Below are positions 2,068-63,415 of a DNA stretch of 64,000 bases, one piece after another. Source of the DNA: an uncultured Phycisphaerales bacterium (lineage in GTDB: Bacteria > Planctomycetota > Phycisphaerae > Tepidisphaerales > Tepidisphaeraceae); NCBI GenBank assembly GCA_963844715.1, contig CAWJPJ010000008.1:448001-512000 (forward strand), read 5' to 3'. The notes under the pieces are model-generated. The model was not told where the DNA came from. It was given only the letters and a program-made list of their open reading frames with translations, and searched no databases. The position numbers were made by a program, and so were the translations under genes. Position 1 is the stretch's first letter. Each line of letters begins with the position of its first letter.

Positions 2068-2121
2068 CTCGTCTGAAAACCGCTATTTATAACCAAAAGC
2101 GATTCATCAGACAGGCCCTAG
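1229..2121 (-). mobile_element. IS5-family (IS427-like) element, copy 1
   Basis: Perfect terminal inverted repeats GGCCTGTCTGATGAATC with CTAG at 1229-1232 and 2118-2121. Confidence 0.95.
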
Positions 2122-2190
2122 TTGTTAGTTGCTGGTTGCCAGTAAAAGGCAATTCACTAGCAACTGGCAACTAGCAACTGGCAACCAGCA
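2119..2190. repeat. inverted heptamer-repeat hairpin (AGTTGCY)n / (RGCAACT)n without cargo
   Basis: TAGTTGTTAGTTGCTGGTTGCCAGT, 12-nt spacer, ACTAGCAACTGGCAACTAGCAACTGGCAACC; first unit AGTTGCT lies at 1224-1230 on the other side of the IS. Confidence 0.85.
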
Positions 2191-2193
2191 TCT

Positions 2194-3458
2194 ATGATCA
2201 CCTTTCCCTGCCGATGCGGCCATCAATTCAGCCTTCCGGACGACATGGCCGGGAAGGAGATTCAGTGCCCAAAATGCGGCCTGTTGCGCGACATTCCCAA
2301 AATGGGAGATCTCGATAACGTCGATCCCGACGGCACCTACAAAGTCTCTGAAGTCGCCCCCAATCCGCACGAACTGGACGAAACCGCCAGGCTTTTCAGC
2401 CGCAAGAAAGCCGACGCCGAAGGCCGGGAACTCGATCTTCGTTATCCGGCGCAGCCGAATCGAAAGGTCGAGGAAATTCCGCTCGCGGAAGATGAGCCGC
2501 CCGCGCACCCGCGTTACGATCCGGAAACGGGCGAATTGGTGAAGCCGATCGAGCTTGCGCCGAGCGAAGACCCGGTGAATCCCGCGCTGGTGCCGATGGC
2601 GCGGCCGATGTTGCACTACGCCACCGGCGAAAACGCCCGCCCTTCGATTCATATCCTGGCGCCCTGCGCCTGCTTTTTGATCCCGTGAACGTCGTCACAA
2701 TGTTCTTCGTGCTCCTCGTGCACGCGGCGGCTCTGGAGGTCTTGGCGTTTCCGTTGCCGCAGCTTGGGCTTTTGTTTCTTCCGATCGCCCTGGGCGCCGT
2801 ATTTCTGTCGGCGGCGCACTTCGCAAATGTGATCGAGGAAACCGGGCCGGAGGATCGCGACGAATTGCCGCGATTCTTGCGCGATTTAAATTTCGCGGAG
2901 GACATCTGGCTTCCCTTCTCGCGCTTCGCGCTGGCGGTGATCTATTGTTTTTTGCCCGCGCTGATCGTCGTGCGATTGCCGCTGCCGCTCGGAATCGCTG
3001 AGCCGTTCGCCCTGGCGCTGGCGGCGCTGGGAACTTTTATTTTTCCCGCCGTTCTGCTCACCAGCGCAACCAGCGGAACCGTGCTGAATTTGCGCCCCGA
3101 TCGCCCGTGGCGAATGATCGGAATCCTCGGCGTAAGATATTTTCTGCTCGTCGCGGTATTCATCGCCACTTTGATGGTTTACCTCGTCGGCATGATCGGC
3201 GTGTCGCGATTGGCAATAAAAGGATTTCCCCGATTTCTCACCGATTGGCCGCAGAATTATCTCCTGCTCATCGCCGGAATTTATCTCGTCCATTATTTTT
3301 GCTGGACGCTCGGATTAATCTGGCGCGGCTGGCACAAGGAATTTCCGTGGGTTCTGCAATATTATCACGCGCCGCCGCCGGTGCTTCCGTCGGGGCCGCC
3401 GGGGGTTACGGCTGGGCCGGGCGCTGATCGTAGCTATACAGATTATCGTCCCGGGTGA
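2194..3458 (+). CDS. membrane protein with N-terminal zinc ribbon (one indel near 2670)
   Basis: CRCG...CPKCG in ORF 2194-2688 and multi-TM ORF 2685-3458. Confidence 0.7.
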
Positions 3459-14022: not shown

Positions 14023-14490
14023 ATGAAGTTGAAGGAATTCATCGCGACCGAGGCCATCGTTCCCAGCCTCCAGGCGTCGGATCGCGACGGGGCTCTGAGG
14101 GAACTGGTCGAGGCGCTGACGGCGGCGGGATCGCTGCCGGCGGCGGCGGTCGAGGAAGTGATCGCGGCGCTGATCAAGCGCGAACAGAACGGCTCGACGG
14201 GGTTCGGCAAGGGTGTGGCGGTCCCGCACGTGAAGCATGCGAAAGTGAAGCAGATGTCCGGCACGATCGGACGAAGCGCCGCCGGAATCGACTTTGCGGC
14301 GCTGGATCATCAGCCGGTTTACACCGTGGTGTTGCTTCTTTCCCCCGAGAATCAGCCGCAGCAGCATCTCCAGGCGATGAATATCGTCTTCAGCAATCTT
14401 CAAAAGGACATGTTCCGCCGGTTTTTGCGACAGGCCTCAACCCGCGAAGCGATCGTGGACCTGATCGACGAAGCCGATCAGGGGAAATAA
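14023..14490 (+). CDS. ptsN: PTS EIIA component (Ntr-type)
   Basis: REQNGSTGFGKGVAVPH, IDFAALD. Confidence 0.9.
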   Translation: MKLKEFIATEAIVPSLQASDRDGALRELVEALTAAGSLPAAAVEEVIAALIKREQNGSTGFGKGVAVPHVKHAKVKQMSGTIGRSAAGIDFAALDHQPVYTVVLLLSPENQPQQHLQAMNIVFSNLQKDMFRRFLRQASTREAIVDLIDEADQGK

Positions 14491-14534
14491 TCCGCCGCCG
14501 CAGCTCTCGAGCGCGGCTGAATAACCCGGCGTCC

Positions 14535-14816
14535 ATGGCGACCATCTGGCGAGACATCATCGTGCAAAATTCTCTTGGACTGCACGCGCGGCCCGCGATG
14601 GCGTTTGTCGATATGGCGAATCAATTCAATTCCAAGGTCACCGTCATCAAGGGCGGCGACGAACCCTATGAAGCGGACGGCAAAAGCGTCATGCAGATGA
14701 TCATCCTTGCAGCCACGCAAGGTACGCCCCTGCGGATCAGCGCCGAAGGCGAAGACGCGGAGGCGGCCGTCGCAAGTCTTGCTAAACTATTCGAAGACAA
14801 GTTCGGCGAAGAATGA
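14535..14816 (+). CDS. ptsH: phosphocarrier protein HPr
   Basis: GLHARPA, DGKSVMQM, EGEDAE. Confidence 0.95.
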   Translation: MATIWRDIIVQNSLGLHARPAMAFVDMANQFNSKVTVIKGGDEPYEADGKSVMQMIILAATQGTPLRISAEGEDAEAAVASLAKLFEDKFGEE

Positions 14817-14820
14817 AGAG

Positions 14821-14852
14821 TAGTTGCGAGTTGCCAGTTGCCAGTTGCCAGT
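14821..14852. repeat. left arm, (AGTTGCC)n heptamer repeat
   Basis: TAGTTGCGAGTTGCCAGTTGCCAGTTGCCAGT. Confidence 0.95.
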
Positions 14853-14870
14853 GAAGAGGGCCAAGCATTT

Positions 14871-15229
14871 ATGCCAGTGAGGCATTATCGCGATCTCGTG
14901 GCGTGGCAGAAGGCAATGGACCTGGTCGTGGAAGTCTATCGGTTGACGCAGCGATTTCCGCGCGACGAGCAGTTTGGGTTGACCAACCAATTGCGAAGGG
15001 CTTCGGTGTCCGTGCCGTCGAATATCGCTGAAGGGCAGGGGCGGCGGCTGCAAAAGCAATTTGCCATGTTCCTGCGTGTGGCGCGGCTCAGTGCAGGAAG
15101 TCGAAACACAGCTTTTGATTGCCGAGAGACTTGGCTACGTAGAATCAGATCAGCTTGATGCCGTCCGCGCGTGCGCAAGAGGTAAGTCGGTTAGTCTCGG
15201 GACTAATCAAAGCGGTCGACCCCGCGTAA
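14871..15229 (+). CDS. four-helix-bundle protein (23S rRNA IVP / Avd-like family), indels
   Basis: YRDLVAWQKAMDL..EVYRLT..FP..EQFGLTNQLRRASVSVPSNIAEG.GR, then GSVQEVETQLLIA. Confidence 0.93.
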
Positions 15230-15241
15230 CGGGAGGCATTG

Positions 15242-15273
15242 ACTGGCAACTGGCAACTGGCAACTGGCAACTA
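15242..15273. repeat. right arm, (GGCAACT)n heptamer repeat, inverted relative to left arm
   Basis: ACTGGCAACTGGCAACTGGCAACTGGCAACTA; reverse complement matches the left arm at 31 of 32 positions. Confidence 0.95.
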
Positions 15274-15284
15274 TTAAGTAAGTC

Positions 15285-17024
15285 ATGGAAATTAAAAAGG
15301 GCATAGGCGTTTCCCCCGGCGTGGTCATCGGCACGGCTCTCGTGCTCGACGCGGAGGATTTGGCTATTCCCAAGCGGCAGGTCGCGGTGGCGGGCGTCGA
15401 TGCGGAGATGGCGCGGCTCGATCTGGCAATCCAGGAGACGATCGGCGATCTCACTAAATTGCGCGACGACATCGTTGCCAAGCAGGGGCGGGACATTGCC
15501 GGGATTTTCGATTTTCACATCGGGATTCTGCGCGATCCGTCGGTGATCAAGCCGATGCAGCAGGAGATTACCGCGAATCATCGACCGCGGAGTATGCCGT
15601 CAGTTCGGTGATGCGGAAGTACGCCACGGTGTTTTCCACGATGGGAGACCGGTATCTGTCGGAAGCGCGTCAAGGACGTGCACGATGTGGAGCGACAGGT
15701 TCTTCGGCGGCTGATCGGGCAGAAGAAACTGGATTTGACGCGCCTGGACGCGGACGCGATCGTGATCGCGCACGACATGTTGCCGAGCCAGACGGCGACG
15801 CTGGACAAGAAGCATGTGAAGGGGTTTGCCACCGACGCGGGCGGGCGGACGAGTCATACGGCGATCGTGGCGCGGGCGATGGGCATTCCGGCCGTCGTGG
15901 GATTGGGCGACATCACCTCCGAGGTGAACAGCGGCGATCTGGTGATCCTGGACGGGAATCATGGCGTACTAATCATCGATCCGGACGAGCAGGTCGTCGC
16001 GGAGCATCGCGAATCGGAACGCCGGCGATTAAAGATCGAAAGCGATCTGGCCGCCCTGGGAGGACTCCCAGCGCAGACGCAGGACGGGCATCTGATTTCC
16101 CTTCAGGCGAATATCGAGTTTCCAGCGGAAGTGGATGATGCGCTTCGCCGCGGCGCCGAGGGGATCGGATTGTATCGAACAGAGTATCTTTATCTGGCGA
16201 GCGATCACGAGCCGAGCGAAGAGGAACATTACGGCGCTTATGCGGACGCGCTGCTCAGGCTCAAGAATCGGCCGCTCGTCATCCGCACGCTCGATTTGGG
16301 CGCGGATAAATATACTCAGGACCGCTCGGCGAGCCCCGAGCGCAATCCGTTTCTGGGCGGGCGCTCGATCCGGATGTGCCTGCGTGACATTCCGATGTTC
16401 AAGCGCCAGCTTCGCGCGATTATGCGAGCTAGCGTGCTGGGGGACGTGCGGATCATGTTCCCCATGATCTCCACGCTCATGGAGCTGCGGCAGGCGAAGA
16501 TGGTGCTCAACGACGTGATGGAGGAATTGGACGACGAGGGGGTGGATTTCAAGCGGAATATCTCCATCGGGATGATGATCGAAGTGCCGTCGGCGGCGCT
16601 GATGGCGGAGAAATTCGCCAAGGAAGTGAACTTTTTCTCGATCGGAACCAATGACCTGATCCAGTACACGCTGGCGGTCGACCGGACCAACGAAAAGGTC
16701 GCCGGGCTGTTTTGCCCGGGCCATCCGGCGGTTTTGGGGCTCGTACGCGACGTAATCCGCAAGGGCAGCCGCAGTAATATCGGCGTCAGCGTGTGTGGTG
16801 AAATGGCGGGCGAACCCCTGTACACTCTATTATTGTTGGGATTAGGCTTGACCACATTCAGCATGAGCGGGCCGGATATCCCGGAGATCAAGAAAATTAT
16901 TCGCTCCACGACGATGGAGCATGCGCGGCAGGTGGCGCGGAGGGTGATGACCTTCGACAGCGAACGCCAAGTCATGCACTACCTGCGCGATGAGACCCAG
17001 AAAATCGATCCAGAAGCGTTTTAA
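15285..17024 (+). CDS. ptsI: PEP-protein phosphotransferase, PTS enzyme I (indels near 15580-15670)
   Basis: GIGVSPG, GGRTSHTAI, GIGLYRTE, RTLDLGADK, SIGTNDLIQY, CGEMAG. Confidence 0.96.
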
Positions 17025-62692: not shown

Positions 62693-62732
62693 GATTTCAG
62701 TTTAGCCTTGCTTGAAGGGTTTGGCCAATTGG

Positions 62733-62862
62733 CGCGAAAACCAGAAACCCGGACCCAGAATGTCGAATCAATGCCCGAATGCTCAAATGACGGGAAAGCC
62801 CTTTCGCTCATTCGGATTTCGGGCTTGATTCTGGTTTCTAGTTTCGGATTTCTGGTTTCCGC
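62733..62862. repeat. imperfect palindrome of about 130 bp built of GAAACCM heptamers
   Basis: AAACCAGAAACCCGG...AATGAC / TCATTCGG...TTTCGGATTTCTGGTTT. Confidence 0.85.
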
Positions 62863-63255: not shown

Positions 63256-63377
63256 GAAACCCGAAACCAGAAACTCGAATCCCGAATCAAACCAGAATGT
63301 CCGAATGACGAAACGACTTTTCGGTCATTTGGACATTCTGGTTTGGTTCTGGTTTCGGGTTTCGGATTTCTGGTTTC
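63256..63377. repeat. second copy of the GAAACCM heptamer palindrome
   Basis: GAAACCCGAAACCAGAAACTCGAATCCCGAATC...AATGAC / GTCATT...GGTTTCGGGTTTCGGATTTCTGGTTTC. Confidence 0.88.
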
Positions 63378-63415
63378 GCTTGACGCCGCTGCCTCTGGCC
63401 GCGAGATTCCCGCGC

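Follow-up and report, generated by a model that had tools for sequence, protein, structure and literature searches.

What is a small gene doing between ptsH and ptsI, enclosed on both sides by inverted arrays of a seven-base repeat? The locus lies in the genome of an uncultured Phycisphaerales bacterium of the Tepidisphaeraceae, within a 64,000-nucleotide stretch of DNA (hereafter the window), to which all coordinates refer unless a contig is named. The original prediction held that the unit might be a mobile cassette lacking a transposase, an element processed in the messenger RNA, or both. We address the question through the anatomy of the locus, the distribution of its arms and the fate of the same junction in related genomes.

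A cassette in the ptsH-ptsI operon

The locus comprises the following features.
14535..14816, plus strand: ptsH (HPr), the upstream host gene (TIGR01003, E 1.5e-23)
14822..14852, plus strand: left arm, 31 nt, unit AGTTGCC, five AGT cores with four 4-nt spacers; the 31-nt boundary is common to 73 arms of the genome
14853..14870, plus strand: inner leader with the purine-rich stretch GAAGAGGG; putative function, read from the sequence
14871..15229, plus strand: four-helix-bundle gene (23S_rRNA_IVP, PF05635 / TIGR02436), 120 aa once two assembly indels are removed (P0004); assigned by profiles and by the fold of the orthologue P0001
15242..15272, plus strand: right arm, 31 nt, five ACT cores, reverse complement of the left arm with one mismatch (complementarity, TRF)
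15285..17024, plus strand: ptsI (enzyme I), the downstream host gene, split by assembly indels (TIGR01417; PF02896, E 5.7e-103)

The inverted arms extend over 14821-14855 and 15239-15273 (35 nt, 94% complementary), and the near-perfect 32-bp pairing originally described was reproduced at 31 of 32 positions of their core (14821-14852 and 15242-15273). TRF returns a period of 7 and 4.4 copies for each arm. The sole gene inside is the four-helix-bundle gene (TIGR02436, E 6.6e-25), as had been claimed. Five nucleotides separate the ptsH stop (14816) from the left arm and 12 separate the end of the right arm from the ptsI ATG (15285), within the operon order hpf, ptsN, ptsH, cassette, ptsI and RNase E/G gene. 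Judged from its sequence, GAAGAGGG probably serves the cassette gene as ribosome-binding site; the motif GAAGA lies 3' of the left arm in several gene-less hairpins too. A consensus scan of 14300-15400 detected no sigma-70-like promoter or terminator-like site, and an Rfam search placed no family over the cassette. In a 501-nt stretch folded in silico the arms pair (z = -5.2; 0 of 100 shuffles equally stable). The cassette therefore has the complementary termini for a long stem that mark an intervening sequence (IVS); it lies outside rRNA, being flanked by protein genes.

The assembled cassette gene contains two frameshifts. Because short-read contigs from two of four runs carry two extra bases at both frameshift sites, and because an intact 120-aa product (P0004) is encoded on another contig of 820,910 bases, these frameshifts are assembly errors, and a real frameshift or pseudogene is ruled out. 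Similar indels in ptsI are corrected by one contig. Small indels are frequent in this assembly (15581, 15663 and elsewhere), where ptsI, the RNase E/G gene and the gene of the 23S insert look split. The contigs of the four DNA runs, whose cover is low and patchy, contain no joint that skips the cassette, an absence that speaks neither way.

The family identity proposed from sequence alone, that of an IVP/Avd-like protein, was upheld by both profiles and structure. The cassette protein scores 133.9 bits against PF05635 (cut-off 33.8; E 3e-39) and 27.2 bits against bAvd PF22296, below the 40-bit cut-off. A structural model (pLDDT 94) was made of P0001, a same-genus orthologue from a Tepidisphaeraceae genome that is 75% identical; it matches Xcc0516 (2GSC), the closest solved relative, with a TM score of 0.90, BT_0352 with 0.81 and Avd (4DWL) with 0.78. 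The 2GSC and 2RLD entries contain five chains each, and Xcc0516 is described as a homopentamer (PMC4990558). By analogy with these relatives, the cassette protein is predicted to form a five-subunit ring.

Arms, arrays and junctions beyond the locus

The heptamer is not confined to this operon; the original prediction covered neither the genome-wide set of gene-less copies nor the five-core length of the arms. A repeat scan of the source genome found 227 arrays of period 7, compared with 155 of period 6, 81 of period 8 and 11-25 of periods 5, 10, 11 and 13. Six unit families accommodate 223 of the period-7 arrays, AGTTGCC accounting for 85, and five of the six match the arms of a resident family gene; for the sixth, no matching gene was found in the 85%-complete assembly. 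Close inverted pairs share the polarity of the full cassette in 40 of 41 cases. The ptsH-ptsI gene is the only full-length AGTTGCC-family member found in the assembly.

Seven 23S_rRNA_IVP-family genes are present in the genome. The expectation that inverted arms would recur around such genes held for four of them (the ptsH-ptsI copy, a copy in 23S rRNA, one with GAAACCC/GAATGAC arms and one with 9-base units) and failed for three, where a single arm, direct 6-base arms or a hairpin upstream was found instead. The 23S copy (G000:C4:133040-133470) is a true intervening sequence: the one 23S rRNA gene of the assembly contains it, bracketed by CTAG-type heptamer arms of five cores each. The design of this copy equals that of the ptsH-ptsI cassette, which supports the suspected kinship with rRNA intervening sequences.

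Gene-less copies occur within the window as well.
2118..2194, no strand assigned: gene-less five-core AGTTGCC-family hairpin, left arm split by an insertion sequence (repeat scan)
63256..63378, no strand assigned: gene-less hairpin of a second heptamer family (GAAACCC / TTCTGGT), with a similar one at 62730-62859

The insertion sequence (1232-2118), which we take to be IS5-like, measures 887 bases, has two overlapping ORFs and targets CTAG; 8 of its 28 full copies sit in AGTTGCC-type arms, as identified by pattern. The hairpins at 62730-62859 and 63256-63378 are composites that contain a second, inner stem and belong to the GAAACCC/GAATGAC family, which numbers about 70 arrays genome-wide and corresponds to the arms of the 23S_rRNA_IVP-family gene at C6:590032. 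A separate observation concerns four GxxExxY (TIGR04256) genes of the same genome (C8:285363-285701, C5:125275-125619, C4:188061-188408 and C6:1180713-1181057), which lie between arms with a period of about 9-10 bases, in at least three cases inverted around the gene; these loci would form a parallel cassette class with another cargo.

Arm length has a preferred value. Chains of AGTTGCC with 3, 4, 5, 6 and 7 or more cores number 47, 23, 52, 4 and 2, and those of GAATGAC with 3, 4, 5 and 6 cores number 50, 9, 22 and 0; the corresponding GAAACCC series (102, 54, 40, 5 and 1 for 3 to 7 or more) declines steadily, with no five-core peak. Lengths of 30-36 nt are found in 139 of the 227 arrays of the source genome and in 86 of 160 period-7 arms beside family genes of other genomes. 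Across 73 aligned arms, collected with a pattern that demanded five cores, conservation ends at position 31 and no sixth core follows on either side, an absence that is independent of the pattern; variation falls mainly at unit positions 6 and 7. Exact-pattern matches with five and six cores number 28 and 0 in the source genome (G000), 21 and 0 in G015, and 33 and 1 in G033. Longer runs are numerous in G005, G021, G027 and G046. Five cores are the mode, and a cap in some genomes (strict in G000, G015 and G033), with no universal limit.

To place the arms in a wider sample we assembled 111 family genes, 30 from relatives and 81 from 80 loci of many phyla, 107 of them with full flanks; the sampling was not random, since these are the top-scoring matches to one subgroup. 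Inverted arms flank the gene at 95 of the 107 loci; among 150 mismatched pairs 10 gave inverted arms, and direct arms occur at 12 of the 107 loci. Exceptions have 8-, 9- or 6-base units, direct arms or a single arm. The units begin R-G and mostly end with a pyrimidine, and 78 of 94 units from left arms contain Y-R-G, compared with 30 on the opposite strand and 58.5 in shuffles. In 70 of 95 cassettes a stop on the same strand lies before the left arm (25 on the opposite strand), in 60 a start on the same strand lies after the right arm (3 on the opposite strand), and 53 of the 95 have both. On cyanobacterial plasmids, six of the eight family genes fetched from 36 records have both arms and two have the right arm only.

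Units follow the protein tree: those of nearest proteins differ at 2.34 positions, compared with 3.18 +/- 0.12 by chance, a relationship that may reflect plain co-inheritance. Near-identical protein-unit pairs occur in different phyla, which indicates that the cassette travels whole and is not proof that the protein reads its unit. Residue 56 of the protein covaries with unit position 3 (z 9.8), glutamine occurring with 35 of 48 T units and H, Y, C and W leading among G units; once controlled for the tree, the signal comes down to two independent pairs on supported branches, an underpowered comparison, and is not significant.

The ptsH-ptsI junction was then compared among relatives. Searches of 61 genomes yielded 58 ptsI loci; eight were dropped because the HPr or ptsI match was missing in the stretch, and 50 were kept. 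Two junctions (the source genome and G001) hold a full cassette, 12 a gene-less heptamer hairpin, one a single arm and 35 none, two of these 35 being doubtful. The unpublished genome G004 supplies one junction of the last class and one row in the genome tallies, and no conclusion rests on it. With 2 full copies, 13 sets of gene-less arms and 35 empty sites, this comparison of presence and absence in relatives returned the patchy distribution expected of a transposase-less mobile cassette. Gaps of at most 23 bases separate the two genes at 12 of the 50 junctions. The units differ from one junction to another (AGTTGCY, AGTGGTC, GGGTTCA, GATTTTC, AGTGGAC, AGGGGTT and others). In G002, the third genome of the genus, the ptsH-ptsI hairpin is decayed, and a full cassette with the same protein subgroup and unit lies at accB-accC. 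When the 30 closest loci are placed on a tree, at least eight changes of state are needed at the ptsH-ptsI junction, gains and losses not being separable, and occupancy at 15 of 50 junctions also fits an old insertion followed by many losses and unit drift.

The reciprocal comparison was drawn from 32 cassettes of relatives, for 18 of which the matching junction was located in the source genome. None of the 17 besides ptsH-ptsI has a detected array, and one shows a decayed arm by eye. At one further ptsH-ptsI junction (L011) the site is occupied by a different palindromic repeat, presumably REP-like. Elsewhere, four genera (L032, L035, L037 and L038) each carry a full cassette with its own unit at one response-regulator junction, and their proteins are scattered on the tree by inspection, with no formal test of monophyly; this pattern hints at repeated insertion or replacement at a preferred junction.

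Proposed mechanism and rival explanations

Taken together, these observations suggest that the ptsH-ptsI cassette is likely the full-length master of a family of small mobile DNA elements that occupy operon gene junctions. We favour, with reserve, the explanation that it is a selfish cassette that is expressed by operon read-through and encodes a predicted pentamer; each subunit would bind one core, and the ring would recruit a copying enzyme, the gene-less hairpins being non-autonomous derivatives. The evidence for it includes the patchiness of the junction, the 85 AGTTGCC arrays, the excess of five-core chains, the shared polarity of close pairs and the arms found beside family genes in the wider sample.

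In this selfish-cassette model, a unit with neither promoter nor terminator of its own would be expressed by read-through from the host operon. By analogy with Avd, each subunit of the protein ring probably binds one of the five cores in an arm, on a single strand, much as Avd holds flipped-out bases. With the arms single-stranded, the ring would mark or hold them so that an enzyme, either of the host or acting in trans, could copy the unit to new junctions. Selection would maintain each arm as a binding site that conforms to the family unit, and the hairpin would arise less from selection for an RNA stem than from the opposition of two such sites. Gene-less hairpins would have lost the gene by deletion and, being non-autonomous, would rely in trans on a master, for instance the ptsH-ptsI copy. 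A position just after a stop and just before a start would keep the cost to the host low, and in 23S rRNA the hairpin would be tolerated because RNase III removes it.

Candidate mobilisers were sought in the same genome. No reverse transcriptase (PF00078) matched in the 85%-complete genome, and this enzyme was set aside as mobiliser on that ground; neither the reverse transcriptase nor the template and variable repeats of a diversity-generating retroelement were found beside the gene, whose neighbours are PTS genes. No cognate DDE or Y1 transposase was found in or beside the full cassette, the cargo of which is PF05635. The Y1 transposases encoded elsewhere were rejected, none of five having a detected array within 600 bases, as was the 887-base insertion sequence, which has its own ends and mostly other targets even though some of its copies lie in arms. 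No target duplication was seen by eye at ten hairpins or at the full copies, each viewed without a close empty allele.

Among the rivals, a domesticated regulatory network survives best, although we judge it unlikely. Here the ring would bind the junction arrays and tune translation or stability for the downstream gene, in this case ptsI, and the arrays would be kept for the benefit of the host. Strong co-orientation and the closeness of the arrays to stop and start codons would suit such a role, as would the RNA binding of Avd and the TAACTGA repeats found just upstream of Beggiatoaceae start codons, which have been proposed as regulator sites (PMC4679880). A conserved regulatory role is harder to reconcile with a junction whose occupancy changes at least eight times among 30 genomes, with unrelated units, with insertions in coding loops and rRNA, and with arms that are often hit by the insertion sequence (8 of 28 copies by pattern).

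The messenger-RNA part of the original prediction fared worse. It would have the arms pair in the transcript and RNase III cut them, freeing the gene as a separate RNA and uncoupling the ptsH and ptsI messages. The stem does form in silico, and the source genome encodes RNase III; that enzyme cuts the Coxiella 23S insert, which has heptamer repeats upstream of its gene, in the first repeat in vitro (PMC4990558), and Xanthomonas transcripts begin or end somewhat more often at heptamer repeats (PMC4692102). Given the enzyme and the Coxiella precedent, incidental cutting of the ptsH-ptsI cassette is possible. None of three tests points to selection for such cutting. G-U pairs are no commoner than A-C in 95 stems (88 versus 91; by loci, 25 versus 32), and variant units are not mirrored between the arms (15 of 104, with 12.6 +/- 2.9 expected, and 14 of 65, with 11.7 +/- 2.6 expected). 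The arms resemble two independent copies of a recognition unit. Further, 143 of the 223 arrays have no partner detected within 700 bases. Finally, cassettes nested in dnaE2 (L050 and L057) and in a DNA methylase gene (L034) leave the host frame open end to end, a state found in just 12 of 95 cassettes overall; these three in-gene copies therefore point to read-through, not excision. The mRNA-excision reading is weak, and we consider a messenger intervening sequence decidedly improbable. The same dnaE2 and methylase genes contain gene-less arms in frame at other loops too.

That the arrays are ordinary simple repeats growing by slippage, with the gene an old passenger among them, is very improbable: long runs in several relatives and the gene-less state of most arrays would be expected of slippage, but the sharp five-core edge (28 exact five-core and no six-core matches in the source genome), the fixed polarity of 40 of 41 close pairs, the arms beside 95 of 107 family genes and a four-core AGT pattern present in 0 of 6 genomes without the gene family and 33 of 55 with it (kin not being independent) speak against it, and the association and polarity counts largely refute it.

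Known systems and significance

The layout of a rare gene-bearing master with many short, gene-less inverted-repeat copies between genes, and an occasional in-frame insertion in a coding loop, is that of REPIN/RAYT and MITE systems. The cassette family shares this layout and, as those elements do, comprises many gene-less inverted-repeat copies with patchy presence. Unlike them, its cargo is not a transposase and has no known catalytic motif, its arms are periodic arrays in place of single palindromes, and no target duplication was seen by eye. The proposed core-reading ring would also resemble TRAP, a ring that reads spaced triplets.

The closest rRNA counterpart is the helix-45 IVS of Coxiella burnetii with its S23p protein, which is like the cassette in protein family, in size (about 430-470 bases), in its terminal inverted arms of about 28-33 pairs and in the heptamers upstream of its gene (PMC4990558). 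It differs in that the ptsH-ptsI cassette lies between protein genes, where excision is not needed, and stands at the head of a family with some 85 gene-less arrays; the Coxiella heptamers are treated as a strain-variable detail of one locus (PMC4990558). The heptamer simple repeats of Xanthomonas and Nostoc (PMC4692102) and the TAACTGA repeats of Beggiatoaceae (PMC4679880) resemble the arrays described here in their 7-base units, their preference for four full units, their inverted pairs and their closeness to stop and start codons. They have been explained by G-quadruplexes or by S1, Csp or CsrA binding (PMC4692102, PMC4679880), and a term search of the main text of both papers turned up no reference to four-helix, S23 or xcc0516 genes. 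Arrays with AGT, TTC and ATT cores are incapable of forming quadruplexes, yet have equal length.

Avd has the same fold (TM 0.78 between 4DWL and the P0001 model), and its pentameric barrel grips an RNA stem-loop with bases held in crevices between all five subunits (bioRxiv 10.1101/2023.10.23.563531). The cassette protein is unlike Avd in being 11% identical to it, in scoring below the PF22296 cut-off and in lacking any reverse transcriptase, template or variable repeat that we could find.

The rRNA form, with heptamers at one locus, was known. The link of this family to arms outside rRNA and to genome-wide heptamer repeats appears to be new, in that no paper making either connection was found in the literature covered, which took in main texts and few subscription journals. 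The link connects an abundant family of proteins, whose function is unknown, with heptamer repeats that lie between bacterial genes and have lacked an explanation. The ptsH-ptsI locus is a good test case, since it combines an intact gene, near-perfect arms and the sole full-length AGTTGCC member found with a same-genus relative that has a gene-less hairpin at the corresponding junction.

A broader and more tentative possibility is that these cassettes represent a class of transposase-free mobile elements, each encoding a ring of five subunits that would count and bind five heptamer cores at each end of its gene and recruit a host copying enzyme. The heptamer repeats of cyanobacteria, Xanthomonas and Beggiatoaceae might then be gene-less derivatives, ORF-bearing rRNA intervening sequences copies that landed in rRNA, and Avd a recruited member. 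If the ring reads five cores, the 7-base repeats of many bacteria would have a source. If it binds its own unit in sets of five cores, quadruplexes would not be needed to explain why four full units are preferred, rRNA intervening sequences would gain an origin and the source of Avd a hint. If this class exists as proposed, each protein-unit pair would be a natural, orthogonal module for sequence-specific binding.
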